Shown: positions 3,504-62,291 of the stretch, piece after piece
Numbering within the stretch: the first letter of the stretch is position 1
How the letters are laid out: each line of letters opens with the position of its first letter
From: a virus
IMG/VR virus record: IMGVR_UViG_3300026382_000175
Location: 1-64,000 of that record
Reading direction: 5' to 3' (one strand)
Length of the DNA: 64,000 bases
Translations under genes and position numbers: made by a program
The notes under the pieces: model-generated
Seen by the model: the letters and a program-made list of their open reading frames with translations, nothing else
What the model was told of the DNA's origin: nothing
Databases searched by the model: none

Positions 3504-3520
3504 ATATTAAACCTCCATTA

Positions 3521-17340: not shown

Positions 17341-17372
17341 TTGAACTCTCTAGTATTACGATTAGTTAGATT

Positions 17373-17442
17373 AGTATTACTAAGTATTACGAATTCTTAT
17401 TGACCCTAGGGAATTTTGAATAGCAGTAATACTAAGTAATAC
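17373..17442. repeat. 70-bp GTAWTAC element, copy 1
   Basis: 57/70 ungapped identity to 44636-44705; pairs of GTAWTAC heptamers flank a conserved core. Confidence 0.9.
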
Positions 17443-17461
17443 GAATTGGCTAAAAATATTA

Positions 17462-29754: not shown

Positions 29755-31620
29755 TCAATCAAAATAGCTACCCCAAAACAGTTGAGTTAGAGTTTGGTTT
29801 TGTTGAGAGGTATTACTTACTTCTGCTTTATGAATCCTTTGGAAAGCTAACTGTTTGATTAAATCTTTATTAGTTACTAAATTCCAATAAACTCCTACTA
29901 CTGCATCAGCACCATCTTTACTACCTTTAGTTCCATCAGGGAACTCTTGAGGGTGATCTATTTTCTTACCTATATCCTCTACATGTAATAACTCTTTAAT
30001 CAGTAAGTCGTGTTTAGGTATCCAAACTCTTTCCTCATATATAGCGTCTCTGAAGGAGAGGTAAGGGTCTTTAGTTCTATCTACTGATAAGAGAGCTGTT
30101 TTATAACCCATCTGGGTTAACTGTTGCCTCATATCCTCAGACTGAAACCCATCAATAGTTACCATTGCTATTGGGTAACCTAATCTAGAAAGGTCTACTA
30201 TGAATTGTCTTATCTTGTAAAATGGAATTCTCTCCCCTGGTAGAGGTTCTAAATAAGCTACGAAATCTATAACTACTTCTGGTTCAGAAAAAGAGTGTTT
30301 TTCTAAAGTTAGTGGGTCAACTCTTTCTATTGTTTTGTAGCCTTTTATGTAACCTGAAGCTATACCTGTCCTATCTCCTGTTATGGAAAGGTCTATATGA
30401 ATAACTCTAGGGCACTCTTTAAAGAGTGGGTTCTTTAGGTAGTTTATGTTGAAGTAGTTAATTAAGACATCTGATTTGTCGTTAAAGGATAATCTAATTA
30501 TCTGTTGGTTAACAGGGTTAGTAACTGAAGCTTGTTTTATGAGTATGTTTTTAGTTTTGAATATCCTATGGGTTGAACCTACTGAATAACCAGCTAAGTC
30601 TCTTATGGCATTGTGTAAGTCTAACTCAAATTTATCCTTTAGCTCTATTGGAACTTCTATTACCTTAGTTTCATCTATGTATTGCAGTTGGGACTCATCT
30701 TCTATTATGAATGGATCAGTAGTTTCATCTCCTATGAAAACCTTAAAGGTTTCACCTGAATAAATACCTAGATGTTTCTTAACTTCCCATATAGGGTATT
30801 GGAAGATTATTACTCCTTGCTTACCTCTTACCTTTTCTGCATGCTGGGAAACGAAATCAGTAGGAGATTTCTCAGAAGACACTAAGCAAAGATGTCCTGG
30901 AAGTTTGCCACCAGCTTGAGCAAACCTAGATTCCATTCTTCTAAGGAGTGCATTGTAAGACTCTTGAGCTTGGTTAGATATTACATCAAAGTTAGCTTCA
31001 TCAAGTATTCCTCCAAATACAGCCATACCAAGAGTGTGGGTAAACCTAGAACCTGCTACTATACCTATGTTATTAACAAATCTGATTTCAGATGTTTTCC
31101 TATTCTCAGCATCTAAATGTTCTTGGAAGAACTCTGAGTTAGCTATTAGGTTCTTAAATGGTTCATATAAAACCTGATCAGCCAATCCTAGTGTAGCGTT
31201 GAAGAGAGCTATTACTATCCTATCAGTAGGAATTAAGTTAAACTTTTTATGAGGATTTTCCAATAGGAGAAGTTTATAAAGATCATAAAGTGTTATAACC
31301 CTTGCTATTGAACTCTTGCCAACCCCTATCGCACCTCGCAAGATGCACTCATAATAAGGAGAGTAGAATGGGTTAGGAAAGATTGTTTTTAGAGCTTCTT
31401 TCCATAATGGGTATATCTTACCTCCTAAAGAAAGGCCTAAATACTTAGGATGTTCTATAAAGGTTATTATGTCTACTGGAACTTCTTTATAGCCCTCTAA
31501 TTCAGCATATAGTTGGAATAAAGATTGAGGGTCATTTTGGAACTTCTCTATTAGCTTCTTTAGTATAGACCTCTCTTTAGGAGGTAAGGTTTTTAGTTTA
31601 TTGATTAGTTGGTTTAGCAT
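29755..31620 (-). CDS. terL: Terminase large subunit
   Basis: Walker A GAIGVGKS, Walker B ILDE, nuclease HIDLS...D, 'DGFQS', 'KIDHP...SKDGADA'. Confidence 0.92.
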   Translation of the reverse strand: MLNQLINKLKTLPPKERSILKKLIEKFQNDPQSLFQLYAELEGYKEVPVDIITFIEHPKYLGLSLGGKIYPLWKEALKTIFPNPFYSPYYECILRGAIGVGKSSIARVITLYDLYKLLLLENPHKKFNLIPTDRIVIALFNATLGLADQVLYEPFKNLIANSEFFQEHLDAENRKTSEIRFVNNIGIVAGSRFTHTLGMAVFGGILDEANFDVISNQAQESYNALLRRMESRFAQAGGKLPGHLCLVSSEKSPTDFVSQHAEKVRGKQGVIIFQYPIWEVKKHLGIYSGETFKVFIGDETTDPFIIEDESQLQYIDETKVIEVPIELKDKFELDLHNAIRDLAGYSVGSTHRIFKTKNILIKQASVTNPVNQQIIRLSFNDKSDVLINYFNINYLKNPLFKECPRVIHIDLSITGDRTGIASGYIKGYKTIERVDPLTLEKHSFSEPEVVIDFVAYLEPLPGERIPFYKIRQFIVDLSRLGYPIAMVTIDGFQSEDMRQQLTQMGYKTALLSVDRTKDPYLSFRDAIYEERVWIPKHDLLIKELLHVEDIGKKIDHPQEFPDGTKGSKDGADAVVGVYWNLVTNKDLIKQLAFQRIHKAEVSNTSQQNQTLTQLFWGSYFD

Positions 31621-31650
31621 TATTGAACTCTTTTAGAGTGTTATGGATTT

Positions 31651-31726
31651 GCAAGGTAGGAGAAGGGAGGACTGGGACTCCCTTTACCTGAGTGGCCAAC
31701 TCAGGCTCTCCTACCCTGCCCCAGTC
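31651..31726 (-). ncRNA. Structured element: three-way junction plus 7-bp pseudoknot
   Basis: Helices 31651-63/31707-19, 31664-69/31678-83 and 31687-93/31699-705; loop GACTGGG is complementary to 31720-26. Confidence 0.65.
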
Positions 31727-31769
31727 TGATATATGGGTTGTGAGGAATAATGTTTTGAGGTTGTATTAG

Positions 31770-32249
31770 CTATACTTCTAGATGTTCTACTACTGAACTT
31801 AGTATTTCCTTTAGGGTATTTCTGGTTTCTTGATTTATCTCTAGTTGCTCTAGTATAGAAGAGTCTTCTTCAGTTTCTACTACTCTTAACTCTACTGATT
31901 GAGATAACTTAGAAAGTTCTTTTAGGATTGGTACTAAGGACTTAAGGTTATTGAATACTGAGTTATAAGCTTGAACTAATCCATTATAGAACTCTACCTG
32001 TTCTATGAAGTTAGAGAAGTTAGCGTTAGAAAGTAATTCGTCTTCTAGGGTTTCAAGTTTCTCTCCTAGTTTTATCAGACGAGACATGTACTTTTTTATC
32101 ATTAACCTTGTAAAAGAAGCTACTTCTAACTTTAGGGAATCTAAGTCTGGGTCTAGTTTGAAATCCTTGGAATTACCTTCTAGGTAGTCTCTTAGAGAGG
32201 TTAGTTGTTTATCTAGTTCTGATTGAACCTTTATGTTAGGCTTTTTCAT
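31770..32249 (-). CDS. Putative terminase small subunit
   Basis: Helical 159-aa protein directly upstream of terL; position only. Confidence 0.45.
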   Translation of the reverse strand: MKKPNIKVQSELDKQLTSLRDYLEGNSKDFKLDPDLDSLKLEVASFTRLMIKKYMSRLIKLGEKLETLEDELLSNANFSNFIEQVEFYNGLVQAYNSVFNNLKSLVPILKELSKLSQSVELRVVETEEDSSILEQLEINQETRNTLKEILSSVVEHLEV

Positions 32250-32269
32250 TAGCTACCTCTTTAAGGTTA

Positions 32270-32400
32270 AAGAAAGGGTAGAGGGTTATTTCCTCTACCC
32301 TTTAACTCTCCTGGTCAGGGAGGAGAGATGAGGGGGAAGGAGGTCAGAATGGAATACAAAGTAAAGAGAATAGTTCAAGAAGGGAGAGTATTATTTAGCC
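32270..32400 (-). ncRNA. Putative trans-acting antisense sRNA with two mRNA targets
   Basis: 32311-32332 equals 61624-61645 (22/22). 32349-32379 vs 42378-42408 is 26/31 with all differences G:U-compatible. Ends in a terminator; 5' end uncertain. Confidence 0.7.
32273..32303 (-). terminator. Intrinsic terminator hairpin (3' end of the putative sRNA)
   Basis: 12-bp perfect stem AAAGGGTAGAGG/CCTCTACCCTTT followed by CTTT. Confidence 0.75.
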
Positions 32401-32449
32401 TTAGCTAACCTAGTTAAGGTAAGTTAACTCTATTATAATAACTTGATAA

Positions 32450-32884
32450 TTATAATGGTACTTGATTAGGTAGGTTAGAAATTAAAGTTTGGATTGGATT
32501 GTTTATGTAGGAATAGGATTTAACTATACTTTGGATTAGATTAGCTAATGAACAGTCTTGGTCAAACTGGTAGTTTATTTCGTACTTCTCATTAAACTTG
32601 GACTCATCTATTAATAAGGAAAACTTTAGGTCTTTAGCTTTTATGTGGGTTAGGATTAGTTCTAATAAAGTAAGCATAAGGCTTCTGCTTACTTTAAGTC
32701 TTAACTTTTTATCAAACTGATAATACTTAAGAGGAATGGTTAGCATTAGTCCAGAGTTAATATCATTGGCTGTAAAGTGGTATTTAGGATAGCGTAGTGT
32801 GGAAGAGTAGGTTAGGTTTAGCAAGTAGGTTTTCCTTTTGCCCTTCTTTAATCTCCTTATGAAGTCTCTTTCTATAATCAACAT
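32450..32884 (-). CDS. Hypothetical protein
   Basis: ORF with GGAG RBS. Confidence 0.6.
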   Translation of the reverse strand: MLIIERDFIRRLKKGKRKTYLLNLTYSSTLRYPKYHFTANDINSGLMLTIPLKYYQFDKKLRLKVSRSLMLTLLELILTHIKAKDLKFSLLIDESKFNEKYEINYQFDQDCSLANLIQSIVKSYSYINNPIQTLISNLPNQVPL

Positions 32885-32897
32885 GATTAGCTCTCCT

Positions 32898-33422
32898 TTA
32901 TACGTAAACTGGAGATAAACAGTAGTTAAGGAAGAAGTCTAACCAAGTTCCTATGTAATCATTATTAACGATGTAGAAAGGTAAAGATTCAGGTCTTTTA
33001 GGTAAGTAAAGGTTTAAAAGGTTGGAGAAGTCTGGTATTCTGTTTAAGTGATCAATGTTTACTATTGCTAAGGGTCGCATGTTATTGGTAGCAAATACTA
33101 TCATTGGGAATGGAAATACTCCAAAGTGTTCATAGTACTTATGAGAGGCTACTTCTAATTGGTTAACCCAATCCTTTAGTTCCGATGTAAAGGTTAGGAG
33201 TTGGTTGGCTGAAACTCTAGAACGCTTTTTACACTCTACTATTAAGTGAGGTCTTTTTATTGTGTCTGGAGAGAATACTATGTCTGAGTAGTCAACCTGG
33301 TAAGTACCTGAAGATAAGGCTCTGTGGCATTCATGTTTTTTAAGATTCCAACACTCTCTAAAGATTTTAGCTACCCTCTCTTCAAACTGCTTTCCCTTAT
33401 TCTTAGACCTATTTCTACCCAT
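32898..33422 (-). CDS. Holliday junction resolvase-like PD-(D/E)xK nuclease
   Basis: 'SKNKGKQFEERVA...SG....SDI....IVECK'. Confidence 0.8.
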   Translation of the reverse strand: MGRNRSKNKGKQFEERVAKIFRECWNLKKHECHRALSSGTYQVDYSDIVFSPDTIKRPHLIVECKKRSRVSANQLLTFTSELKDWVNQLEVASHKYYEHFGVFPFPMIVFATNNMRPLAIVNIDHLNRIPDFSNLLNLYLPKRPESLPFYIVNNDYIGTWLDFFLNYCLSPVYV

Positions 33423-33594
33423 ACTTACTTCTCCTTATTAACCTCTTTAGAATCTTTACCAGTTTGATTTTCTCTGAATCAGTTAATAATCTCCAACCTA
33501 ATCTATTGTCGTAAACTTGAACCTTAAAACAGTTTTGGCAAAATCTGTAATACTTTGACTTGACTTTAACCTCCTCCCACTGATGGTTGCACAC
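33415..33594 (-). CDS. Small Cys/His protein (59 aa), missed by the ORF track
   Basis: GGAG-N6-GTG; MCNHQWEEVKVKSKYYRFCQNCFKVQ...; fills the gap between nrdB and the resolvase. Confidence 0.65.
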   Translation of the reverse strand: MCNHQWEEVKVKSKYYRFCQNCFKVQVYDNRLGWRLLTDSEKIKLVKILKRLIRRSKYG

Positions 33595-33605
33595 AATTCA
33601 CTCCA

Positions 33606-34712
33606 CTAATCAAAGTTAATCTTGTCTATATCTTCTTCACTTACAGGTATGTGAGCATAATCAATAGCTCCAGTTTCAAAGAAAGAGGTTTTGTCTTGAG
33701 TTAAGAGTTTTTCTATATCCTCAAATGGATTTCTGTTAACATCAAATATCGGAGATATGCCTAATAAGGCTAACCTTTGGTTAGTTAAGGTTTGAATGTA
33801 GTCTTTAATGTTCTGTTCAGTCATTAATGGAACTTCTCCTGCTACTGAATTAGTATAAAATTCAATATCTGCTTCTGCACTCCTACCAAATATCTCTTTA
33901 ATTTCTTCTTCGTTGTAGTAATATCCTCTATCCCTCCACTCTTTTAGAATGTAAGTAAATAGAGGAATATGGAGAACTTCATCCTTTCTGATCTGGGTTA
34001 TCTGTTGATTAGAGCCTTGAAGAATGCCCAATTTATAAGCAAAAATATGGAAAGTATTAAATCCTGTAAAGAACACTACTCCTTCAATAGCTAAATCGTT
34101 TACCATAGCTCTAAAAACAGCTCTTTGGAGAGTTTCTTGTCTGTAAGAAAGTTGATTTAGATTATTCTCATCTACTATTCCTCTGTTAACTAAATCATTA
34201 AGAGCTTGAAAATCCCTAGTTATAGCGTAATTCCTCTTAAGAAGAGGTTCAAAATGCTTGAACTTGTAGTAAACCTCATTAATCTTCTTGTCATCTTCCC
34301 CAAACACTGATTTAAGTATATACTGGTAAGACTCTCTGTGAAGGGATTCAATAGCTGTATGCCAATAGAGAGCTGTTTTTATTTCCTCATCAGCCATTAC
34401 TCTTAACAGTGTTGAAGTATTATTAGGAACTATTGAGTCTAGGAGAATTAGAAAGGATATAACATACTCAAAGGTATCCTTTATACCTTTAGGTAAGTCA
34501 TCAAACTGCTTTTTGTCCTCAGACATAGATATTTCCTCTGGTCTCCAAAGAATAGACATAGCTTGCTTAATCCACTCTATTGCATAAGAGTGTTTGTTCA
34601 GGTTGAGGTTGGCTAGTCCTGTAGACTTTTCTACTACTTCATCAGTCCAGATTAATTCACTGAAGTTGTCATTACCATTTGGATTAAACACTTGAGGAAA
34701 CCTACTTACCAT
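33606..34712 (-). CDS. nrdB: Ribonucleotide reductase class I beta subunit
   Basis: 'W.PEEI.MSED', 'ESLHRESY', 'EGVVFFTGF', 'KDEVLH', 'FFE...DY'. Confidence 0.93.
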   Translation of the reverse strand: MVSRFPQVFNPNGNDNFSELIWTDEVVEKSTGLANLNLNKHSYAIEWIKQAMSILWRPEEISMSEDKKQFDDLPKGIKDTFEYVISFLILLDSIVPNNTSTLLRVMADEEIKTALYWHTAIESLHRESYQYILKSVFGEDDKKINEVYYKFKHFEPLLKRNYAITRDFQALNDLVNRGIVDENNLNQLSYRQETLQRAVFRAMVNDLAIEGVVFFTGFNTFHIFAYKLGILQGSNQQITQIRKDEVLHIPLFTYILKEWRDRGYYYNEEEIKEIFGRSAEADIEFYTNSVAGEVPLMTEQNIKDYIQTLTNQRLALLGISPIFDVNRNPFEDIEKLLTQDKTSFFETGAIDYAHIPVSEEDIDKINFD

Positions 34713-34742
34713 CTTTTCTAACCTCCTTAGTAGAGTAGTATA

Positions 34743-37181
34743 TTAATTAGCACAGCTTACACACTCTTCTTTAGCTTGTTCTCCTTCTGCTTTAGCTACT
34801 ATCCTAGCATAGTAAAGAGCTTTTATTCCACTCTTCCAAGCCTTATAGATAAACTGACCTAGTATCCTACCCACTTCTTCTTTTGGAATGAAACCATCTC
34901 TTATGTTAACTGGATAATCAAAAGAAATTCCTGAGTCTATATACTTTTGTATAAACGAAACTATCTCTATTACATCGTATAAGTCCTGCTCAGTAAACTT
35001 TGAATACTCATCATAATAAAACCAACCTTCTGTAATATATCTAGGAAATACTACATAAACTCCAGTAGACTGCTTTTCAGTCTGAATAAGGTTAAACGGA
35101 GGAAAAATACTTGCAGTAGTTCCTGCGTAAATAGATGTAGAAGTATTAGGAGGAGCATTTAACAGCATTGTATTCCTGATTCCATATTTCTGAATATCTT
35201 CTATCAACTCATCAACTTCACCCCTATCTACATCAAATTCAACAACAGGAGAAACTTCAAAACCTTCTCCATAAGGGATTTGGCCTAAGAGTACTTCGTT
35301 CCACTTAGTTTCACTATACTTATTTGTTCTACCTTTCTCTTTAGCTAAATCTACACTAGCTCTTATAGAGTAAAATGCTATCCTACCAAATATCTGCTTA
35401 AGCAAGTTAAACAACTCATCTTTGTTAACATTTCTACTAGTTAACCTGTAAGCGTATAATTTATTGTCGTCTATTGACTTCCTAATGAGTAAGTCTGCTA
35501 GTCCTACAAACCCTATTCCTAAAGTTCTGTAGTCCTGATTGTGCTTTTTAATCTCATAGATAGGATGACCTGCTATGTCAAGAATGTTGTCCATATACCT
35601 AACTACTAACCTCATCAAAGAACTTAATTTCTGATTATCCTGTAAATAACCTAGCTCATACAAAACTGGTAAGTTGAGGGAAAGAAGGTTGCAAGAGTGT
35701 ACATAACCTAAATCTTCTATCTTTTCATCAGGTTTCTTACCTTCAGGGTTTGAGTTAGAAAAAGGAGAGTAAGACTCTACACAAAGGTTCCCACACTTAA
35801 TTTGCTCCTTGAAGGGAGAATACTGATTTACTGTGTCTACAAAGAAGATATAAGGCATTCCTGATGCCAATATGTTCTTTATTAATTGTCTATAAATTTC
35901 CCTAACCTTATAAACTTTACCTCTTATCTTTCCTTGCTTAACTAACTCCTCTGCTTTCGTATAATTTTCCTCAAACTCTTTCCCCCAACAGTTTACCAAG
36001 TCAATACCACACTTCATTTTCAACTCATAGTGGTCTATGAGTGTCCAATCTTTATTCTCTTTAACCCTCTCCATAAACAAGTCTGGTACTACTACTTGAG
36101 GGTAGAGGGAGAACATTTTCATTCTTATTTCCCCAATAGGATTACGCATAGCCATAAAGTCCAATATATCCATATGCCATATAGGGAGAGCTACTGTACC
36201 AGCTCCTTTGCGTTTTCCAAGCTGATCTATCGTATCTAACATATCGTCAAGTATCTTACACCACTTTAACACTGATACTGATTTACCTTTATTCCCTTGT
36301 ATATAACTTCCATTAGGTCTTACTTCTCCAAGATAAATACCTAACCCTCCTCCTCTTTTACTAATCTCTGCAACTTGCCAAAATGAATACATAATACTTT
36401 CAAGGTTATCGTGAATATCAAGGATATTACAAGATGATAAATTACCTTTAGCTCTTCTAAGGTTAGAAAGTTGAGGAGTAGCTGGAATTATTACCCTATC
36501 AAGTAATAGTTTATAAAACTTTTTAACATTATTCATGAATAATTCTTTATTTTGCTTATAATCTGGAAGAAAACCAAGAATAGAAATTAAGAGGAGAGCT
36601 TCGGCAAAAGTTTCAACAGGTTTATTATTATAAGTCAATATATATGATTTTGAGAATTTTACTACCTGATAGTAAAAGTCATTCCACATAAAATAAGGAA
36701 AGTTATAATTATAATCTAACTGAACCTTTTTAGCATACTCATAGAGTTCTTCAAGAATGTCATTAGAGATTTTAAGTATTCTCTCATCATAAATACCTAA
36801 TTCTATATACTTTTTTAAGTGAAAAATCCAATCGTTAGCATCTTGAAAAAACCCGTAATCATCAGTAAAAGTGTCATACTCCCTTTCTCTATGTAATCTT
36901 ATGTCTTTTATCCAATCTAATAAATAAAACCTACCTGCTAGAATAGAATAGTCTTTAATTCTACCTTTATCTGATATTGAAAGCTTATTAGCAGTAGCTA
37001 TTAAATTTTGTTGGATTTCTTTAGTAGTAATACCAGACTTAAGAGTAAAGCGAAATTCTTTCCAAAATTGCTCATCATCTATATTTAGACCTTGCCTGCA
37101 AAAGTTATACATCTTAATAATCTTATCCATACTGAAAGGTTCTTTATGACCGTCTCTCTTTACAACTTCAATTCCTATCAT
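34743..37181 (-). CDS. nrdA: Ribonucleotide reductase class I alpha subunit with ATP cone
   Basis: 'VVKRDG', 'PATP', 'LSSC', 'GGG.G', 'GNLCVE', 'APPNTS', 'KALYY' and C-terminal CVSC. Confidence 0.96.
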   Translation of the reverse strand: MIGIEVVKRDGHKEPFSMDKIIKMYNFCRQGLNIDDEQFWKEFRFTLKSGITTKEIQQNLIATANKLSISDKGRIKDYSILAGRFYLLDWIKDIRLHREREYDTFTDDYGFFQDANDWIFHLKKYIELGIYDERILKISNDILEELYEYAKKVQLDYNYNFPYFMWNDFYYQVVKFSKSYILTYNNKPVETFAEALLLISILGFLPDYKQNKELFMNNVKKFYKLLLDRVIIPATPQLSNLRRAKGNLSSCNILDIHDNLESIMYSFWQVAEISKRGGGLGIYLGEVRPNGSYIQGNKGKSVSVLKWCKILDDMLDTIDQLGKRKGAGTVALPIWHMDILDFMAMRNPIGEIRMKMFSLYPQVVVPDLFMERVKENKDWTLIDHYELKMKCGIDLVNCWGKEFEENYTKAEELVKQGKIRGKVYKVREIYRQLIKNILASGMPYIFFVDTVNQYSPFKEQIKCGNLCVESYSPFSNSNPEGKKPDEKIEDLGYVHSCNLLSLNLPVLYELGYLQDNQKLSSLMRLVVRYMDNILDIAGHPIYEIKKHNQDYRTLGIGFVGLADLLIRKSIDDNKLYAYRLTSRNVNKDELFNLLKQIFGRIAFYSIRASVDLAKEKGRTNKYSETKWNEVLLGQIPYGEGFEVSPVVEFDVDRGEVDELIEDIQKYGIRNTMLLNAPPNTSTSIYAGTTASIFPPFNLIQTEKQSTGVYVVFPRYITEGWFYYDEYSKFTEQDLYDVIEIVSFIQKYIDSGISFDYPVNIRDGFIPKEEVGRILGQFIYKAWKSGIKALYYARIVAKAEGEQAKEECVSCAN

Positions 37182-38266
37182 CTATTAACCTCCTCCTTAA
37201 GAATTTTCTCATCAAATAATCCAATTTCTAAATTAAATCTTGCATAATAATCTTTATCTCCATACTCTACATAAACATATTTAACATCTTTATTCCAATC
37301 ATTACTTTGCATTTGTTTATATTTATCTTGAATATCTAAAATCCTAATAGTAAATCCTCCCTTATCATACAAACCTAACTTATCATCTCCTATAACTTTA
37401 ATATATTGACCTAAAAATTCAGGTTGATATTTGTATAAAAGCTCAAGTTCTGCTTTAGCTACTTCTCTTATTTGTTCTTGAGCTTGTTTTGAATATCTTT
37501 CTACATAAAAATTCCTTGCACATTTGTAATCTTTCATTACCCAAAATACAGTATAAAGAGATTGAGGTAATACAGAACGGGCTACTTCAGGTTTATAGCC
37601 TATTTTAAGCAAAATCTTATACATACTTTCAAGTTCTTGATAAAAATAACTAAGCTCTTGGAATGTTAAACCTGTTGCTTCATTAAGCAACCCATCTGGA
37701 TACCAAAACTCAAATTCTACTTTATCAGGTTTTACATATCTACGAGAAAGTTCTAAATATGAGCAACACCTATGACGATGATATTGACTTCTTACAAAGA
37801 GAGGAACTTTAACTTTAAAAGTAGCTATTGTTTGTTTGTGCCATTTTATAAAATTTTCTAAATCCTTTTCAGACGCAGAATCACTATCAAGTCTACTTGA
37901 AATTTGAGATAATACAAAATGCTTAAAATTCCTTTGATGTAACTCCTCTTCAAACGTAAAAATTCTTTTATTTCTCAGAGAATGCTCAATACCAATATAA
38001 AAATACGAATCATCTTTTCTCATAGGAAATCTAATAAATTCAAATGGACTTTTATGCCCTTTTTTAATAAGAAAATCCCAAAGTTTTTTAGGATTTTTAG
38101 CCATTTCATTACCATAGCTGATTGATGCTACTACTGATACAGCTTCCTCTCTTGATTCTTGATTAAGATTGGATAAAGAAAAATCCCATAGTTCCACAAA
38201 TCCTTTTACAGGAGAGTAATCATAAATCTCCTTTTTAGCTATTTTCTTTAAATACTTCAGTCTCAT
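37178..38266 (-). CDS. thyX: Flavin-dependent thymidylate synthase
   Basis: 'GHKSPFE', 'QYHRHRCCSYLELSRRY', 'PEVARSVLPQ', 'AQEQIR'. Confidence 0.92.
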   Translation of the reverse strand: MRLKYLKKIAKKEIYDYSPVKGFVELWDFSLSNLNQESREEAVSVVASISYGNEMAKNPKKLWDFLIKKGHKSPFEFIRFPMRKDDSYFYIGIEHSLRNKRIFTFEEELHQRNFKHFVLSQISSRLDSDSASEKDLENFIKWHKQTIATFKVKVPLFVRSQYHRHRCCSYLELSRRYVKPDKVEFEFWYPDGLLNEATGLTFQELSYFYQELESMYKILLKIGYKPEVARSVLPQSLYTVFWVMKDYKCARNFYVERYSKQAQEQIREVAKAELELLYKYQPEFLGQYIKVIGDDKLGLYDKGGFTIRILDIQDKYKQMQSNDWNKDVKYVYVEYGDKDYYARFNLEIGLFDEKILKEEVNR

Positions 38267-38284
38267 CTTTTAGCCTCCTTCCAT

Positions 38285-38734
38285 CTAAACTTCTACAGGT
38301 TCAATTACAAAACTAACTTCATTCCCTTCTTTAGTTAAAGTCCAAAATACTGGATAAGACTTACCAAACCTGATAGCATATAAGCGTGAAATCAAGTCTT
38401 CCAAAATCTTTACCAGTTCAGCATTCCTAATAGAGGTTTTAACCTCTGTAGGTGAAACCAAATGATTAATTGCTGATACTATTACTTTGTAGTAATGATA
38501 GAAATTCACAACATCATCTTCTAACAAGGAAATAAGTTCCATATAATCAGAATTGTCCATTATGTTGTCCATAAAGCTAATAAACTTAGAAGGAGTTAGA
38601 ACCAAATTCAAATCTGCATTCTCATAAAGAATAGAGACCCTAAACTTCCCTATCTTCTCATCAAAGGTAATTTGAATTTCTTGTATATCTCCTGTAAAAA
38701 ATTCTAGCAGTCTCATTACTCCACCTCCATACAT
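38285..38734 (-). CDS. Hypothetical protein
   Basis: ORF in operon; the likely start is the second Met, after GGAGG. Confidence 0.6.
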   Translation of the reverse strand: MYGGGVMRLLEFFTGDIQEIQITFDEKIGKFRVSILYENADLNLVLTPSKFISFMDNIMDNSDYMELISLLEDDVVNFYHYYKVIVSAINHLVSPTEVKTSIRNAELVKILEDLISRLYAIRFGKSYPVFWTLTKEGNEVSFVIEPVEV

Positions 38735-38738
38735 TTAG

Positions 38739-38963
38739 TTAAATTGATCTTGTATTGTCAATACAAATCAAATTATCCTTTTTAACTAACTCCTTTGCAC
38801 ATTTCTCACATAAATATTTAAGAAGAGTTCCAAAACCTTTCTTAAGACTAGAAAAGCTTTTACCCTCTTTAAGAGAGTAACAATACCTTGTCATAATAAA
38901 ACCACACTTATTACACCTTAATGCAGTTCCTTCATAAAGTTTATATTTACACAATGCTTTCAT
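38739..38963 (-). CDS. Small zinc-finger protein
   Basis: CNKC...CEKC. Confidence 0.6.
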   Translation of the reverse strand: MKALCKYKLYEGTALRCNKCGFIMTRYCYSLKEGKSFSSLKKGFGTLLKYLCEKCAKELVKKDNLICIDNTRSI

Positions 38964-39385
38964 CTCACTTCCTCCTCTTCCTCAATTGAAAGAACATTCC
39001 TCAAGTTTATAAAAGCTGGGACATCCTTAGCCTGTTCAAACTCTAGCATTAGTCCAGCATCCTTAAACTTCTCCCAAAATCTGTTCATGTATTGAACTCC
39101 AACTATTGGAATATTCAGGACTAGTCCATCAAAAGTTTCTACTTTTAGTCTTAACTTAAAGTCGTATAGCTGGGTCTCCTCTACATAAACTGATTCAGCT
39201 CCACTCAGACTTATCCAATTCCTCTTACCTTTACTTTCGTAATAAAAGCTGTCCTTACAGTTCAGAACTGCTGTAAACAACCTTCTGTAATCCTTCCAAG
39301 ATTCCAGCTCAACAGTTTTAACTAAATTGCTGTAAACTACCTTAGCTTTAATGTAAGTTTTAGCCATCTTTAACCTCCTTATCAT
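38960..39385 (-). CDS. Hypothetical protein
   Basis: ORF with GGAGG before MAKTY; two weakly similar halves. Confidence 0.6.
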   Translation of the reverse strand: MIRRLKMAKTYIKAKVVYSNLVKTVELESWKDYRRLFTAVLNCKDSFYYESKGKRNWISLSGAESVYVEETQLYDFKLRLKVETFDGLVLNIPIVGVQYMNRFWEKFKDAGLMLEFEQAKDVPAFINLRNVLSIEEEEEVR

Positions 39386-39560
39386 CTAGAATATTAATCT
39401 CTTTAACAGCCTTCACCTTGATTGTATAACCATAATCCAAAATAATCCAATCCTCCTCATCTTCTTTTTCAATTCCTTCAATCATCCCCACAAAGCTACT
39501 ATCCTTCAAGATGATTTCACAAAGCTTTCCAATGTATTTCTCGTACTTTTTCTTAACCAT
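39360..39560 (-). CDS. Small Sm/LSm-like-fold hypothetical protein
   Basis: 'YIGKLCEIILKD..FVGMIEGI....WIILD....IKV.AV.EI' pattern. Confidence 0.5.
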   Translation of the reverse strand: MVKKKYEKYIGKLCEIILKDSSFVGMIEGIEKEDEEDWIILDYGYTIKVKAVKEINILDDKEVKDG

Positions 39561-39584
39561 ATCAACCCTCCCTACTCTTCAATT

Positions 39585-40037
39585 TTATTGATTTGTAGTA
39601 TATTTCGTAAATTTCTTCAACATTGCTTCTGCAAATTCTTCTAGATCTAGCAATTGCCTTACTACATCTTTAGCATCTTCATATATTTCTCTCGTAGTCC
39701 ACTTCTTGCATATCTTAGCCAACTCATTATTTTCATCATAATACCCTTTCCAATCAAAAGGATGTGCATAATCCCAACCATACCACCAATACCCTTTTGG
39801 TAAGTAAACTCCATCACCTTTACTTGAAAAGGTAAAACCTCCATGAACACTAATAATACTTAAATCACCATAATCAAAACCAGCTAATATGTGATTCTCA
39901 GGAAGCCCTACATAAGCTACTGGGTGAGTTCCTAAAGACATTCCTATAATCCTAAAACCAAGACACTCTTCATCAAAGAGTGTTTCAGGTTTGTCTAACA
40001 TCTCTTTCTGGTAAATCATTTCCTTAAACTTCTTCAT
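39585..40037 (-). CDS. Conserved phage hypothetical protein
   Basis: 'AYVGLP..H...VHGGFTF...WWYGWDYAH' motif common in phage early proteins. Confidence 0.7.
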   Translation of the reverse strand: MKKFKEMIYQKEMLDKPETLFDEECLGFRIIGMSLGTHPVAYVGLPENHILAGFDYGDLSIISVHGGFTFSSKGDGVYLPKGYWWYGWDYAHPFDWKGYYDENNELAKICKKWTTREIYEDAKDVVRQLLDLEEFAEAMLKKFTKYTTNQ

Positions 40038-40066
40038 CTCAACTCCCCTCTCAAACCTGTTTACTA

Positions 40067-40215
40067 AACTAAACTCAAATCAGGGAGAATTTCAGGCTGG
40101 TTAATCTAAACTTTCTACTCACTATTAACTAAACCAATCTACCCTAGAATTTCAGGTTAAACCTATCCAACTATCCCTATCTTAAAATTAAACTCTCTTA
40201 CTATCAAATTTCAGG
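40067..40215 (-). promoter_or_regulatory. Three tandem leftward phage promoters
   Basis: CCTGAAATT-N13-GTTTA(G/A)TT starting at 40096, 40156 and 40215 on the minus strand, ~60-bp period. Confidence 0.8.
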
Positions 40216-40225
40216 TTGGTAGTAA

Positions 40226-40255
40226 CCTGAAATTCTAATCCAATCCAGTTTAGTT
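40226..40255 (+). promoter_or_regulatory. Rightward phage promoter, back-to-back with the leftward set
   Basis: CCTGAAATTC-N12-GTTTAGTT; forms the inverted repeat AATTTCAGGTT-N6-AACCTGAAATT at the strand switch. Confidence 0.8.
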
Positions 40256-40284
40256 TTATAGATACCAATCAGAAGGAGGTTAGT

Positions 40285-40494
40285 ATGAGTAAGAAAACTT
40301 ACCAGTCCTTACAAGAGTGGTTATCCACTACTAATCCTATGAACAAGCACTACCTAGCTCAGATTATTTCCCTAATAACTATGTTAGAAGTAGGAGATGA
40401 GATTAGTTTAGGATTAGTTAAGATTAAGAAGGAGTCTCATACTGATAATGGTTATACTTTCTCAGTTAGTATAGATAGTTCTCTATTAGAGTAA
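40285..40494 (+). CDS. Hypothetical protein
   Basis: GGAGG RBS; first gene after the promoter. Confidence 0.65.
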   Translation: MSKKTYQSLQEWLSTTNPMNKHYLAQIISLITMLEVGDEISLGLVKIKKESHTDNGYTFSVSIDSSLLE

Positions 40495-40565
40495 TCCCCT
40501 ATTTTTCAGTAGGTTTCTTAAGTATTACAACAACTTTCCCAATCTAGTAAGCTAGAGGAGGAGTT

Positions 40566-41639: not shown

Positions 41640-42250
41640 CCTACTCTACACTATCCTACTTACTTATCTTATACTCTCAACACTGCTATACTACTAATCT
41701 TACTAACCTAGTTACTCTACTTAACCCTGTTATCCAATCCTATTAGTTAGCTTACTATTCCAGTACTTTAGTTTTGAGTTAGATAGTTAGTTATATCGCT
41801 ATATACCCTTCTGATATTGATATAGTTATACTGATATCCCCCTTTTTCAGTAGGTATTACTTGATTTACAATAGCTTTCTAGTATTACTTATTCAGTTAG
41901 ATAATTTTTGATTAGTAGTATAGTTAGTATATAGATAATCCCCCCATTTTCAGTAGGTTTTCCTTGTATTCCATAGGTTATCTCATTATTCGTAGAATAC
42001 TAATCTGATAGAGATATACTGGTAATGGTATAGGTAACAGGTATAGAGTTAGGTAAGTAGGTTAGATAGTACTCTTATACTACTATAAGTATAGATAATC
42101 CCCCCCATTTTCAGTAGGTTTCTTAAGTATAGCAATATCTATCTCAGAATTAGTAATAGAAAACTTATGAATTACTATAACTAAGAGAAATAGAGATATG
42201 GGAAAACTAAGTAATTCAAGGAGTTATACATATTAGGGAAAATTATCTAA
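41640..42250. other. Large non-coding region; candidate replication origin with iteron-like repeats
   Basis: C-rich to G-rich skew switch near 41765; three CCCCC(A/T)TTTTCAGTAGG copies; adjacent to the primase/Rep gene. Confidence 0.5.
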
Positions 42251-42258
42251 CTAACCTA

Positions 42259-42346
42259 CCTGAAACTCTAACTCAGACTAGTTTAGTTATATAGAGTGGG
42301 AAAGTTATATACCCAACCTGAAATTCTAATCCAATTCTGTTTAGTT
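42259..42346 (+). promoter_or_regulatory. Two tandem phage promoters
   Basis: CCTGAAA(C/T)TC-N12-GTTTAGTT at 42259 and 42317. Confidence 0.8.
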
Positions 42347-42377
42347 TAGTAGAATAGGTTAACAGGAGGTTGTAAGT

Positions 42378-44612
42378 ATGGAATATAGAGTAGAGAGGAT
42401 AGTTCAGGTTAGTAGATATAAGAAGTTGGGAGAAGAGGTAGATAGGACTACTGGTATAGTTTTTGTTAAGTATTACGATAGGCATAAGAAAACTGAGTTT
42501 TCAGCCTTCAAAAGTAAAGAAGATGCTAGGAAGTACTGGGAATATTGGATTGGACACGACCCAGAGGCTTTAAAGTTCTACATAAGCAGTGCTACGATAG
42601 AGGGAGAGTTTTCAGACTTTACCAGAGATGTAATAGAGTTTGAAACTCCTAATGGTAATAGATATCTCTCCTACTACAAAACAGATTTCTCCTTTGGTAA
42701 GGATTCTAACTTTACCTTTGGAGTTCATGTTCCTAAAGGTACTACTCCTTACTATCCTACTGGTTGGTGGAATCTAAATGTACCTATGAAACCAGAAGAC
42801 AAATTGATAATAGGAGTAGGTTCTCAGGTTAATATGGGTAAAGCTTTCACTAAAGAGCTAACCATAGATGAGTTCATAAAACTTATGGAAGCTAAAGGTA
42901 AGTTCTACACTCCCTTTGTCTTTGAGAATAACAAGAGGAATAAAGCTAACGCTTACAGACCTGAAAATTCATTAACAATGATCTGCATTGACGTAGACGA
43001 TGATTTGAATTTGATAGATATTCTGAAAGAAAAAGATAAAAATGGGTTTGTTAATTCCTTTCTTAATAGAGTTACCTACTACCTAGAGCAAGTTAGTAAG
43101 AGTGGAGAAGGTTATCACTTCTTTGTACCTGTAAAGGTAAAAGACACTCAGCAACTCTTAAAAATTCTCAACTACCTTCAGCTAGAGTACAAAGGAATAG
43201 CAGATATTTCAGTATTTGAACCAGCTAGGCTAATCTTCTCCTCTCCTTACAGGATAAAAGAGGTTTCTAGGATAGCAGTTACTAGGAACTTTTATGCTGA
43301 TGTAGAGCTTACCCAATTAGAACCAGCTTCAGAGAGGTTAGAAAGAATCAAATCTCATCAGCTAACTATTGAGGGTCATAAGAACTATGTGAGGAATGAT
43401 GGAGCTCTCTACATAAGAACCTATGTAGATGGAGATAGGTTAGTTAAGTGGTTTGAGGAAAAGCATGGAAAACTAACTAGTAAAAAGCTTTTCTCAGTTC
43501 AAGTTACTTCTAATCGCCAATCTATTTCCTCTATAAGCAACGAAAATAGTAAGGTAAGTACTAAACCCTTAGGTAGGGGTAAAAAGTCCGATAATGGCCA
43601 AATAGATAAACGAGGAGGCAAATTTTGGGATGAGTTAAAAGCTAGTACCATAGCAACTGTGAAAGGAGATTTAAATCCAGTTTCAGATAAGAGTAAGGTA
43701 AGGGAATACCAGAGTGGGTTAATAGGATTGATTAAAGAGCTTTCCAAGTTAGCAGGATTTAAGTTCTATGAGTTCAACAGGTATGACAAAGATGGAAATG
43801 TAGTAGGTAATTATTACCAAATTTCAGTATCTCCTGATGAGAAATCTCCTATGGATATATTTCTGTATGATAACAACCCTGAGTTTTTCTACTTTCAATC
43901 TAAAAACGCTTTAAGACACTTCCCTAAGATATTTGAGGAGATAGTTAGCTATACTACTGATGGAAGACCTTGCTTACACATATCTTGGCTAATTAAACTG
44001 TTAAGCTTTATTTCCAAGAACTTCAAACCAGACTTCAACACAGCTAAGATTAAGGACTTGATTAAGAAGTATGGAATACATGAGAAGTATCTCTATTCTC
44101 ACTTTGAGGAAGTAGAAGGATATGTAGTAGAGCTAATCAAAGCTCTTATCAAGAAGAAAGGTAAACCTGTAAGAGTATCTAAATACATTCCTAAAGAAAT
44201 TATTAGCAAATCTAGAGTGTGGAGAAGTTTTAGGAAAGAGTTGGAAAGCTTAGGCTTTGTGTTTGAAAGGAAAAGAGGAGGGTTAGTAGTATATTGGGAC
44301 GAAGAGAAAAAGAAAGACATTGATTACCTGAAGTATAACTCTAAAGGGCTTTCTCCTAAACTGAGGAAAACCTTTAAGAAGTTCTTTGCAGTGGTAAGTC
44401 AGGAAACTTGGTTTGAAGAGATAGTAGTAATACTAGAAGAAAACTGGGTTAAGCATATGGTTTATTGGGTTAGGAAGATGGTAGGAGAGGAGTTGAGAAA
44501 GTGGGAAATGATGTTTAAACGAAAACTGCGAAGTGGAGAAATGTTGTGGTATGAGGATAAACAAAAGCCTATTAGTGCTTTGTCCTATGTGATTACTAGG
44601 ATGGTAGCTTGA
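42378..44612 (+). CDS. AEP-superfamily primase-polymerase-like / replication initiator protein
   Basis: 'ICIDVD', 'SKSGEGYHFFV' and 'DISVFEPARLIF' match AEP (VirE_N/BT4734-like) motifs. Confidence 0.65.
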   Translation: MEYRVERIVQVSRYKKLGEEVDRTTGIVFVKYYDRHKKTEFSAFKSKEDARKYWEYWIGHDPEALKFYISSATIEGEFSDFTRDVIEFETPNGNRYLSYYKTDFSFGKDSNFTFGVHVPKGTTPYYPTGWWNLNVPMKPEDKLIIGVGSQVNMGKAFTKELTIDEFIKLMEAKGKFYTPFVFENNKRNKANAYRPENSLTMICIDVDDDLNLIDILKEKDKNGFVNSFLNRVTYYLEQVSKSGEGYHFFVPVKVKDTQQLLKILNYLQLEYKGIADISVFEPARLIFSSPYRIKEVSRIAVTRNFYADVELTQLEPASERLERIKSHQLTIEGHKNYVRNDGALYIRTYVDGDRLVKWFEEKHGKLTSKKLFSVQVTSNRQSISSISNENSKVSTKPLGRGKKSDNGQIDKRGGKFWDELKASTIATVKGDLNPVSDKSKVREYQSGLIGLIKELSKLAGFKFYEFNRYDKDGNVVGNYYQISVSPDEKSPMDIFLYDNNPEFFYFQSKNALRHFPKIFEEIVSYTTDGRPCLHISWLIKLLSFISKNFKPDFNTAKIKDLIKKYGIHEKYLYSHFEEVEGYVVELIKALIKKKGKPVRVSKYIPKEIISKSRVWRSFRKELESLGFVFERKRGGLVVYWDEEKKKDIDYLKYNSKGLSPKLRKTFKKFFAVVSQETWFEEIVVILEENWVKHMVYWVRKMVGEELRKWEMMFKRKLRSGEMLWYEDKQKPISALSYVITRMVA

Positions 44613-44635
44613 CCAGTATTATGTATTACTCAAAA

Positions 44636-44705
44636 AGTATTACTTAGTAATATTAAGTTTTGTTGATCCTAGCAAATTTTGAATACCAGTAATACTTAGT
44701 ATTAC
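44636..44705. repeat. 70-bp GTAWTAC element, copy 2
   Basis: 57/70 identity to 17373-17442; extra GTAWTAC heptamers at 44623 and 44720. Confidence 0.9.
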
Positions 44706-44738
44706 TGATTTCACAAATCGTAATACTGCTAAAGTTAG

Positions 44739-44768
44739 CCTGAAATTCTAAGGTTAGTTGGTTTAGTT
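44739..44768 (+). promoter_or_regulatory. Phage promoter
   Basis: CCTGAAATTC-N12-GTTTAGTT upstream of an RBS. Confidence 0.8.
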
Positions 44769-44793
44769 TAGTAAACAATTTTAGGAGGTTGTT

Positions 44794-52060: not shown

Positions 52061-53056
52061 ATGGTTCTTAAAAACTTTCCCTTTGACTATAAGGTTAAGC
52101 CTTCAGACCCTAACGAAATTCAAATTTGTTGTCCTTTCTGTGAGAAGTTAGGTAAGACTCCTGATACTAAATACCACTTATACATTCACTTAAAGAAAAA
52201 GGTATTTCACTGTTTTAGGTGTGGTAAGTCTGGTAAGTTCAGAACCTTAAACCAACTTATAAGAATTCTAACAGGTAAAAGTCCTAATCTGCTTGAGAGC
52301 GATTGGGATGAAATTATTAAGGAAGCTTTAAGCTACTTTGACAAATCTTTCTATTTACCTGAAACTTCCCAAGCTCAAGAAGTTTTAGACCTGAATATTA
52401 TTTCCTACCCAGTTAGTAAAACTCTTACTCCAATAGCTTACAACTACCTTAAGAGTAGGAATCTAAGCGATTCTGAGATAGAGGAATATCAGATAAGGGT
52501 TGGTAAGTCTTACCAAGTTGATAACAAAACTATAAGGAAGTGGAAAGGTAGGGTTTTATTCCCATTCTTTGAGAATGGTCAAGTTATTTACTTAGTAGGT
52601 AGGACTTATACCAACCAAGAGCCTAAATACCTCAACTCTAAAGGTAATCGTAGAGATAAGCTATTCCCTAGCAGAACTTTCAAAACTTCTGAAATCATAG
52701 TTTGTGAAGGTATATTTGATGTAATCAATGCTAAAAGGACTACTGGAATATACAGCGTAGCTACATTAGGTAAAGAGATAACAGAAGAGCAGGTTAACAT
52801 TATGGTAGAGAATGGAGTTAGAACAGTTTACCTAGCATTAGACCCAGACTTAACTATTAAAGAATGGCAAAAGAACATCTGGAAATTCCTAGTTAAAGGT
52901 TGTAAGGTTTATCCAGTATTACTCCCACAAGGTTATGATGTAGACTCTATTGGAAGTAGGTTTCCTTATTACCTAGAGTTAGCTTTGAAGAAAAATTTTC
53001 TATCAACCCTCTTATTTCAGCCTGAAATTCTAGTTCAAACCTGTTTAGTTTATTAA
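52061..53056 (+). CDS. DNA primase (zinc finger + TOPRIM)
   Basis: 'CPFC...H...FHCFRCG', 'YLKSR', 'GR...PKYLN', 'CEGIFD', 'LALDPD'. Confidence 0.9.
   Translation: MVLKNFPFDYKVKPSDPNEIQICCPFCEKLGKTPDTKYHLYIHLKKKVFHCFRCGKSGKFRTLNQLIRILTGKSPNLLESDWDEIIKEALSYFDKSFYLPETSQAQEVLDLNIISYPVSKTLTPIAYNYLKSRNLSDSEIEEYQIRVGKSYQVDNKTIRKWKGRVLFPFFENGQVIYLVGRTYTNQEPKYLNSKGNRRDKLFPSRTFKTSEIIVCEGIFDVINAKRTTGIYSVATLGKEITEEQVNIMVENGVRTVYLALDPDLTIKEWQKNIWKFLVKGCKVYPVLLPQGYDVDSIGSRFPYYLELALKKNFLSTLLFQPEILVQTCLVY
53021..53050 (+). promoter_or_regulatory. Phage promoter in the 3' end of the primase gene
   Basis: CCTGAAATTC-N12-GTTTAGTT. Confidence 0.75.
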
Positions 53057-53078
53057 ACAGGTTGATAGGAGGGTTGAT

Positions 53079-61576: not shown

Positions 61577-61604
61577 TTGCCTTCTCTTGAAAAAGGCCTA
61601 TAAT
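61577..61604 (+). promoter_or_regulatory. Host sigma70-type promoter
   Basis: TTGCCT-N16-TATAAT, 36 nt upstream of ATG 61641. Confidence 0.6.
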
Positions 61605-61640
61605 TATAGATAAGGAAACAAAACTGGTCAGGGAGGAGAG

Positions 61641-62291
61641 ATGAGAAAGGTAGAAAGGTTTGAAAACTCAGAGTTAAACTCACTCCAAGCAATTATCTAC
61701 AAATTCTTACAGAGGAAACCTGAAAACTTAGACTTTGATGAACTTTATCAGGAACTTTTCCTTAAAGGGTTAGAGTTATTAAAAGACCCAAAAGTTCAAA
61801 CTCTTAATGAGACTGAGAAGTGGAAGTATATCAAAACTGCTTTACATAACCACATAAAAGACCTTTTAAATGCTCAACCTAAAGAAGTACCTCTTTCAGA
61901 AGTAGTAGAACCTGAAAGTCAACTTTCCTTTATAGAACAAGTATTATCGCCCTATACTAATGTTAGCAAGTCTCCAATTCCAGTGGTTAAATTTATTAAT
62001 CCAGAAACCTATGCTATTGGTAAGGAATTGATTGATAAAATAATGGCTTGGGCTGAAACTCAAGATGAAGGGACAAGAATTTTCTTTGAAGAGTATTTTA
62101 ATCCAAGTCCTGAAGTGTTAGAGTATATGGAAAAACAAACTAATAAGGGAACTTGGAAAAATAGGAAGTTTGAACCTCTATTCTTAGCAAAGGTGTTAAC
62201 TGAAATAGGTAAGTGGAAGTATAAAGATGGTAGAGATAAGTGGTTGAAAATAAAAAGAAAAATGATTAGGGATTTAGGGTTGGCTTTTTAG
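61641..62291 (+). CDS. Phage sigma-factor-like protein
   Basis: 'DFDELYQELFLKGLE...KYIKTALHNHIKDLL' resembles sigma70 region 2; monocistronic. Confidence 0.65.
   Translation: MRKVERFENSELNSLQAIIYKFLQRKPENLDFDELYQELFLKGLELLKDPKVQTLNETEKWKYIKTALHNHIKDLLNAQPKEVPLSEVVEPESQLSFIEQVLSPYTNVSKSPIPVVKFINPETYAIGKELIDKIMAWAETQDEGTRIFFEEYFNPSPEVLEYMEKQTNKGTWKNRKFEPLFLAKVLTEIGKWKYKDGRDKWLKIKRKMIRDLGLAF

Follow-up and report, generated by a model that had tools for sequence, protein, structure and literature searches.

A candidate antisense segment against two of the phage's own gene starts in the terminase-operon leader of a hydrothermal vent phage

Why should the spacer ahead of the packaging genes of a phage carry copies of the translation starts of two genes that lie far away on the other strand? 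The question is raised by the phage record IMGVR_UViG_3300026382_000175 (80.9 kb, referred to as G000), the first 64 kb of which form the window, i.e. the whole stretch of DNA analysed here. Eight runs from five studies, all of DNA type, hold all or part of this stretch, and the two with the largest shares (0.93 and 0.75) are both labelled hydrothermal vent metagenome. An earlier note on the window had interpreted the copies as the active part of a small antisense RNA. The complementarity between the spacer and the two gene starts is in statistical excess, has a defined position and orientation and recurs in phage-specific form in relatives. On balance we lean towards the view that RNA from the minus strand of the spacer is a base-pairing regulator of a Rep-like gene and of the first gene after polA.

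The element lies within the 200-nt spacer 32250-32449, and both flanking genes are encoded on the minus strand, as the earlier note had described. The upstream operon (40037..32450, minus strand) codes for both RNR subunits, a PDDEXK/RusA-like nuclease and, as its last product, a 144-aa protein of unassigned function (32450..32884) that occurs only in G000 and its relative G001. The gene is absent from the relatives G002 and G003, where the nuclease gene abuts the leader (G003:35970-36287; G002:20368-20510). On the other side of the spacer follow, again on the minus strand, a 159-aa coiled-coil-like gene (31770..32249), TerL (31620..29755, matching phrog_9) and the structural genes. The spacer both closes the RNR operon at its 3' end and serves as 5' leader of the terminase operon; the mRNA of the RNR operon either ends at the element or reads through it. 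The 159-aa protein is rare (five clusters among 5.8 billion proteins); one homologue, P0004, is 78% identical and located on a contig of 12,456 nt, and another, P0002, is located on a contig of 965 nt.

Several features of the surrounding DNA were recorded in passing. The gap between the 159-aa gene and TerL (31621-31769, core ~31645-31726) is a GC-rich, highly self-complementary island, whose sole Rfam match is sub-threshold (traJ-II, 22.6 bits vs 40). Clusters of GTAATAC-type heptamers occupy the spacers 17341-17461 and 44626-44727, 27 kb apart. An apparent ORF gap at 1-3520 was considered as a case of recoding and dismissed, as a long minus-strand ORF runs off the contig end there.

Two segments of the spacer, which we refer to as seeds, repeat distant start regions. 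Seed 1 (32311..32332, minus strand) is complementary without mismatch, over 22 nt, to the leader, SD and ATG of gene 61641; on the plus strand, 32311-32332 and 61624-61645 are identical at 22 of 22 positions. Seed 2 (32338..32379, minus strand) is complementary to the SD (7 nt), the ATG and the next 28 nt of the Rep-like gene. Here AGGAGGT at 32338-44 equals 42364-70, and 32349-32379 matches 42378-42408 at 26 of 31 positions, the differences being one T>C and four G>A, all transitions. The SD-ATG spacer in seed 2 is 3 nt shorter than in the target, and the five non-identical positions form G·U pairs. All coordinates and identities that the earlier note had reported for the two copies were reproduced.

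Downstream of the seeds the minus strand contains a terminator-like hairpin (32273..32303) with a 12-bp stem, made up of nine G/C-rich and three basal A-U pairs, and a 7-nt loop. A UUUCUUU-type tail comes next, and immediately after it lie the SD (AAAGAGGU) and spacer (32250..32272, minus strand) that precede the 159-aa gene, with 23 nt between hairpin end and gene. Since this gene starts 23 nt past the hairpin, none of its mRNAs can lack the hairpin or the seeds, and the gene layout implies that the stretch is transcribed on the minus strand. The hairpin is found in both the MFE and the centroid fold. The 12-bp hairpin that the earlier note had taken for a terminator is confirmed as a structure, but a strict terminator scan makes no call here, because its U-tract rule is unmet once the three basal A-U pairs count as stem.

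A second hairpin of 7 bp (CUCUCCU/AGGAGAG, 32306..32327 on the minus strand, with arms at 32306-12 and 32321-27) is likewise part of the MFE fold and holds 8 nt of seed 1 in its loop. It had been compared with the loops of kissing-type antisense RNAs. The hairpin is, however, confined to G000: G001 folds differently and G002 has no such structure. The predicted RNA also has a 5' hairpin (32404..32428, minus strand) of 9 bp, two of them G·U, which is not conserved in G001. As a whole, the minus-strand fold of the element has a z-score of -3.0, and none of 200 shuffled sequences folds as well. The seeds are located in a mostly unpaired tract just 5' of the strong hairpin, which is the usual layout of sRNAs.

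The earlier note had assumed a free-standing sRNA of ~130 nt. The sole promoter basis for such a transcript is a -10-like TATAAT box (32432..32437, minus strand) about 160 nt upstream of the end of the hairpin. It has no good -35 element and was missed by a consensus promoter scan. At this box, ATTATTATAAT is common to G000, G001 and G003; the equivalent place in G002 reads TTGAAA-17-TATATT. The box may, as a weak candidate, mark the start of a short leader transcript. A free-standing sRNA is hypothetical; the stretch also closes the RNR operon and forms the obligatory leader of the terminase genes.

Complementarity to the SD/start region of its targets, by which a trans-encoded antisense RNA is recognised, was found to be above chance. 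A search with the 22-mer at up to three mismatches returned two matches in the window and none in any of 100 shuffles, and a blastn-short comparison of the 200-nt spacer with the 80.9-kb genome gave an E-value of 8e-7 for the same 22-mer. We calculated duplex energies of the minus-strand RNA with 108 gene starts. The two targets named earlier came out best by far (-59.3 and -57.3 kcal/mol), followed by the next-best gene start at -39.0 kcal/mol, and random 60-mers averaged -16.8 (sd 6.9). Rep and the second target accordingly rank 1-2 of 108 gene starts in G000; they also rank 1-2 of 115 in G001, and Rep ranks first of 83 in G002. Pairing z-scores against shuffled targets range from -3.9 to -6.8. 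Genome-wide, this is the only spacer of G000 that carries a long sense copy of a gene start between genes of the opposite strand, and the same applies to G001 and G002. These comparisons make a trans-encoded antisense segment credible.

A function in the plus sense would have to be weighed against this reading. The copies might serve as mimics of the two initiation regions, be it as a decoy or operator, as a GGA-rich protein sponge or as a translated mini-peptide. They do retain a usable SD and ATG, we count five to six GGA motifs on the plus strand by our own reading, and the 19-aa plus-strand ORF 32349-32408 that the earlier note had listed exists. The whole window gave no Rfam match at the gathering score; within 31500-32600, the best sub-threshold match (Termite-leu, 25.5 bits vs a gathering score of 51) also falls on the plus strand. 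A plus-strand promoter was not detected, however, the sole candidate being a 9/12 match 340 nt upstream, and the hairpin stands between upstream plus-strand transcripts and the seeds. The mini-peptide is not conserved either: the corresponding ORFs measure 19, 25 and 9 aa across the phages, with a frame change after codon 10. A protein-binding site, finally, would be conserved rather than swapped for the Rep sequence of each phage. We regard a plus-sense function as highly improbable.

Target 1 (42364..42408, plus strand), about 10 kb from the element, runs from the SD through the start codon to nt 31 of the 744-aa Rep-like gene. Its product gave six matches in 1.84 billion representatives, just one of them strong, and no match in Pfam, PHROG, NCBIfam or PDB. 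Atlas suggested RepB_primase and BT4734-like_N at 0.88, which we take as a lead only, the E-value for BT4734-like_N being 0.18. The AF2 model (pLDDT 46) was too poor for a structure search. Invariant residues include D205/D207 and S242-G243-x-G245-x-H247, which resemble AEP motifs I and II. The label AEP/Rep, and likewise the label sigma-like used for the second target, is backed by sub-threshold matches and by none at threshold; for the 744-aa protein it is to be taken as a lead.

Two copies of a promoter-like motif, CCTGAAAYTCTA-N10-GTTTAGTT, lie upstream of Rep (42259..42353, plus strand), and two copies head the operon 40037..32450 (40047..40160, minus strand). Since Rep and the RNR operon carry the same motif, the Rep mRNA and the mRNA bearing the antisense segment appear to be of one promoter class. 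More widely, sites of the form CCTGAAAYTCTA-N10-GTTTAGTT(TAGTA) are found at 40224-40262, 42257-42353, 44737-44775, 53019-53057 and 55527-55565 and, inverted, at 40047-40160. They precede Rep (twice), genes 40285, 44794 and 53079, and the minus-strand RNR operon (twice), which points to a single regulon under a factor encoded by the phage. Ahead of Rep, a gap of 738 nt is filled by iteron-like repeats and is a candidate origin; repeats of this type, CCCCC(A/T)TTTTCAGTAGGTTT..., occur at 40487-40541, 41838-41985 and 42092-42146 and also at 10652-10691.

Target 2 (61624..61645, plus strand), about 29 kb from the element, spans leader, SD and ATG of the gene that comes first after polA. In G000 this gene is a truncated sigma-like gene of 216 aa. 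A sigma-70-like promoter is predicted at 61577..61604 on the plus strand (TTGCCT, 16-nt spacer, TATAAT) and is identical in G001, and seed 1 spans the greater part of the predicted 5' UTR. The 216-aa protein has no Pfam or PHROG match. NCBIfam TIGR02937 (sigma-70/ECF) is hit at an E-value of 1.7e-4 with 21.3 bits vs a cut-off of 42.9, and a Foldseek search with the AF2 model (pLDDT 65) lists ECF and other sigma factors on top, all with E-values of at least 0.12. The preceding gene (57827-61540) codes for a DNA polymerase of 1237 aa composed of UDG-like, 3'-5' exonuclease and PolA domains, with an intein containing an HNH endonuclease near its N-terminus.

In G001 and G003, the promoter and leader of target 2 precede a different gene. 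There, a 236-aa gene comes first and the sigma-like gene (274/273 aa) follows. A comparison of G000 61641-62291 with G001 (L009:509-2112) and G003 (L010) revealed that about 1 kb was lost in G000. With it went the 236-aa gene and ~58 codons from the start of the sigma-like gene, so that the upstream leader and ATG are fused to the truncated sigma-like gene. Because the leader heads different first genes in G000 and in G001/G003, the conserved target is the operon leader and not the sigma-like gene. The earlier assignment of a sigma-like mRNA as target is correct for G000 but does not extend to these relatives.

Three relatives were available for comparison, and two of the three informative genomes, G000 included, are close kin. 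G001 is 91% identical to G000 at the nucleotide level (Rep protein 95%) and G003 80% (Rep protein 58%). G002, a partial genome, is 70.6% identical over the only 22 kb that could be aligned (Rep protein 54%). Beyond these, scans of viral sequences produced just a TerL fragment of 4.3 kb and a contig of 7.4 kb (L111) that bears Rep but does not include the leader; scans of metagenome and genome contigs for further relatives gave nothing new, and the phage GenBank collection gave no match. One contig of metagenome X3 spans 32116-32591 with 23 differences and three gaps, and one of metagenome X5 skips 32162-33226. The TerL match of G003 (L004/L026) begins only at residue 103.

All four phages share one layout, consisting of the -10-like box, a leader of ~100-160 nt, the hairpin, the SD and the 159-aa gene. 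The hairpins are in the same place in each of them and differ in sequence. G001 keeps both seeds; its Rep seed extends to +42 and is devoid of the SD part. Seed 1 and its own target read GGAGGAAGAGATG in G001 and GGAGGAGAGATG in G000, so that a 1-nt indel (an extra A) is shared between seed and target. In G002 the leader contains, at the same site, GGAGGGTAAGATGGACTAC, which is identical to the phage's own Rep start at 19 of 19 positions (E 4e-5). This 19-mer has sharp edges at -10 and +9 and, according to our own reading of the sequences, agrees with the Rep start of G000 at only 11 of 19 positions; flanking similarity able to support conversion is missing. The G002 leader further holds a seed-1-like GGAGGAGAGTGAG, the best match of which is 13/13 with the start of a 74-aa gene (E 0.14, not significant alone). 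The contig of G002 breaks inside polA, so the region after polA is off the contig. The remodelled leader of G003 displays no significant pairing (z -0.7 to -0.9), though this phage is closer to G000 than G002 is. In G003 the Rep gene and the 236-aa gene (L016/L020: 20692-22914, 1461-2171), the same two genes that are targeted by the seeds of G001, share a start-region 12-mer, GATTAGGAGGTG.

The energy matrix of leaders against targets is block-shaped: the leaders of G000 and G001 pair with the targets of G000 and G001, that of G002 with its own and that of G003 with none. The G002 leader reaches -40.2 with its own Rep and -20.7 to -23.7 with the Rep of the others. Across the four genomes, seeds and targets co-vary between the G002 and the G000/G001 lineages for Rep, and in the indel of seed 1. 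Such co-variation had been suggested as a check on the antisense proposal, and it is present at these two points but not for the Rep seed between G000 and G001, nor in G003, where the seeds are absent. The G001 leader even pairs better with the Rep start of G000 than with its own (-67.5 vs -56.9), so that fine-scale tracking between seed and target is absent.

The substitution pattern was the point on which the earlier note had relied most for selection on RNA pairing, arguing that all differences in G000 become G:U pairs. This argument fails. In G001, all four differences of the Rep seed combine a G in the copy with an A in the target and yield C·A mismatches. Taken over G000 and G001, 6 of 10 differences are wobble-compatible, close to the ~50% expected for random transitions. 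With G001 as sister, three of the five G000 differences turn out to be A>G changes in the Rep gene itself. Between the two phages the Rep seed agrees at 26 of 31 positions, the 5' part of the leader at 53 of 57 and the surrounding block at 93.7%, so that the seed evolves at about the neutral rate. Over this short distance, selection on individual base pairs leaves no signal.

These data bear on the most serious competing explanation, namely that the copies are non-functional recombination debris, with the 5' ends of genes pasted by illegitimate recombination or template switching, decaying since and topped up by gene conversion. The near-neutral divergence of the Rep seed (26/31) fits such an origin, as does the fact that all differences are simple transitions without a wobble bias once G001 is counted. 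The two phages have moreover lost opposite ends of a longer ancestral copy (the distal 12 nt in G000, the SD part in G001), in G003 the pieces disappeared without visible replacement, and the genome of G000 encodes a RecA-like protein. Debris should, however, be erased at the distance between G000 and G002, yet G002 holds a flawless 19-mer of its own Rep without flanking similarity. Furthermore, the pieces in all three phages cover exactly the SD and start, in the orientation that makes the obligatorily transcribed strand antisense, and no other spacer carries such pieces. We judge the debris explanation unlikely. A mini-CRISPR array was considered as well and dropped, as the two pieces lack flanking repeats and their targets belong to the phage itself. 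Among more distant phages we surveyed 79 loci around TerL genes of at most 41% identity, reaching about 10 kb to either side and with crude ORF calls. Matches of at least 13 nt between gene starts and spacers numbered 31 direct and 9 inverted, and just one in the set, at L025 (the G002 locus), is flanked on both sides by genes of the opposite strand.

Four points make up the case for function: the finding in G002, the indel common to seed 1 and its target, a site and orientation that do not vary, and copies centred precisely on start regions. Antisense pairing of the minus strand, as proposed earlier, is the best reading of the locus, and the same architecture occurs at the same site in two relatives. 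Because two related phages show the same arrangement, the element is probably a built-in RNA off-switch of the kind known from P1/P7.

Based on the comparisons described above we propose the following mode of action. The regulator RNA would extend on the minus strand from ~32440 down to 32266, ending at the hairpin, and could derive from the 3' end of the upstream operon mRNA, from a short attenuated leader transcript or from both. Its pyrimidine-rich, largely unpaired body would present two tandem anti-start seeds, followed by the stable hairpin. Each seed would bind the SD and start codon of one plus-strand mRNA, encoded ~10 kb away in one case and ~29 kb in the other. Pairing is expected to block 30S binding and probably offers duplexes of 19-31 bp to RNase III, so that both messages would be repressed. 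As to timing, the RNA might act as a damper alongside Rep or as a late shut-off. The further suggestion of the earlier note, a hold on lytic growth, found no support, and a search of the phage for a tyrosine integrase came back empty.

The position of the element ahead of the late genes also invites an explanation in cis. According to this alternative, the CU-rich tract and the hairpin form a leader that controls read-through into, or translation of, the terminase operon; early mRNAs may regulate this leader in trans, and Rep would be affected only secondarily. With 23 nt between the end of the hairpin and the first late gene, expression of the late genes depends on read-through, and the layout of box, leader, hairpin and SD is preserved in all four phages, including the seedless G003. 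Duplexes of 19-31 bp would moreover destroy both partners. On the other hand, the seeds stop 7 nt short of the hairpin and overlap neither of its arms; since they are clear of the arms, pairing would not obviously open the terminator. A purely cis-acting role also needs no copies of the Rep start and first codons. As the main function of the seeds we find a cis-acting leader decidedly unlikely. That the leader acts in cis on late-gene read-through in addition to the proposed antisense function is nevertheless likely, and regulation may run both ways.

In a more far-reaching scheme, the leader and the two early mRNAs could destroy each other, forming a switch in which the seeds would also act in strain-specific exclusion. 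Early on, abundant Rep and target-2 mRNAs would pair with the read-through terminase leader, bring about its cleavage and keep the late genes off. Later the leader would outrun these mRNAs and extinguish both the initiation of replication and the sigma-like operon. Such a mechanism would encode a sharp early-to-late flip purely in RNA-RNA pairing. As each seed is matched to the phage's own Rep, the switch could double as the means by which co-occurring vent phages exclude one another, a role that c4 has in P1/P7. We consider this extended scheme quite unlikely as it stands.

Returning to the antisense reading, the closest known counterpart is the c4 RNA from the immI region of P1/P7, which blocks the RBS of a phage mRNA in trans (PMC12197685). 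It uses two antisense segments, with short phage-specific complementary stretches and a specificity that differs between related phages (PMC12197685, PMC8198154). The element resembles c4 in that a phage RNA would pair in trans with the ribosome-binding region of phage mRNAs via phage-specific stretches (PMC12197685). In contrast, c4 is cut from the very operon transcript it regulates and maintains lysogeny by keeping an antirepressor blocked, whereas here both targets are encoded on the opposite strand, at distances of 10 and 29 kb, and comprise a replication-type gene and a transcription-type operon. As no Rfam match reached the gathering score, the element is not a member of the c4 family.

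A similar position is taken by StxS, a functional sRNA that arises from termination just after a phage late promoter (PMC7547250). StxS and the lambda 6S RNA (PR' to tR') are likewise short RNAs ended by a terminator just ahead of late genes, with trans base-pairing functions (PMC7547250). StxS differs in that it acts on stx1AB and host rpoS via short Hfq-type seeds, whereas the seeds here measure 19-42 nt and are directed against the phage's own early/middle genes. Like the PR'-tR' type, the element has a terminator-like hairpin directly ahead of the first late gene, a layout repeated in G001, G002 and G003. That type, however, uses a constitutive promoter and a Q-type antiterminator, and the promoter here is a -10-like box only.

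CopA of R1, an RNA of plasmid copy control, and the RNAs lambda OOP and P22 sar are cis-encoded antisense RNAs, transcribed opposite their targets and fully complementary by construction. As is proposed for the element, they cover the place where translation of a replication initiator or regulator begins; the complementarity of the element is, in contrast, trans-encoded and needs separate maintenance. In 3'-UTR-derived bacterial sRNAs the seeds lie just upstream of the operon terminator hairpin, and the sRNAs are cut out of the mRNA or co-terminate with it. Seed placement in the element is alike, but its pairing is much longer than typical seeds provide. A limited search of the phage sRNA literature, which turned up reviews and the cases c4, StxS, PreS, 24B_1 and DicF, returned no leader with tandem anti-start seeds against the phage's own replication gene.

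Since the pairing is long and gene-specific, the assignment of the targets is unambiguous and the prediction is directly testable. If the prediction is right, a trans-encoded antisense segment in the leader of the packaging operon allows the phage to time or restrain both its replication initiator and a transcription-factor operon. It is credible, then, to see in the element a variant of antisense control of the c4/StxS type, set apart by long gene-specific pairing that reaches into the coding region. Such a variant would bring this kind of control, known from temperate phages of enterobacteria, to a lineage of vent phages that is unrelated to them and apparently lacks an integrase.
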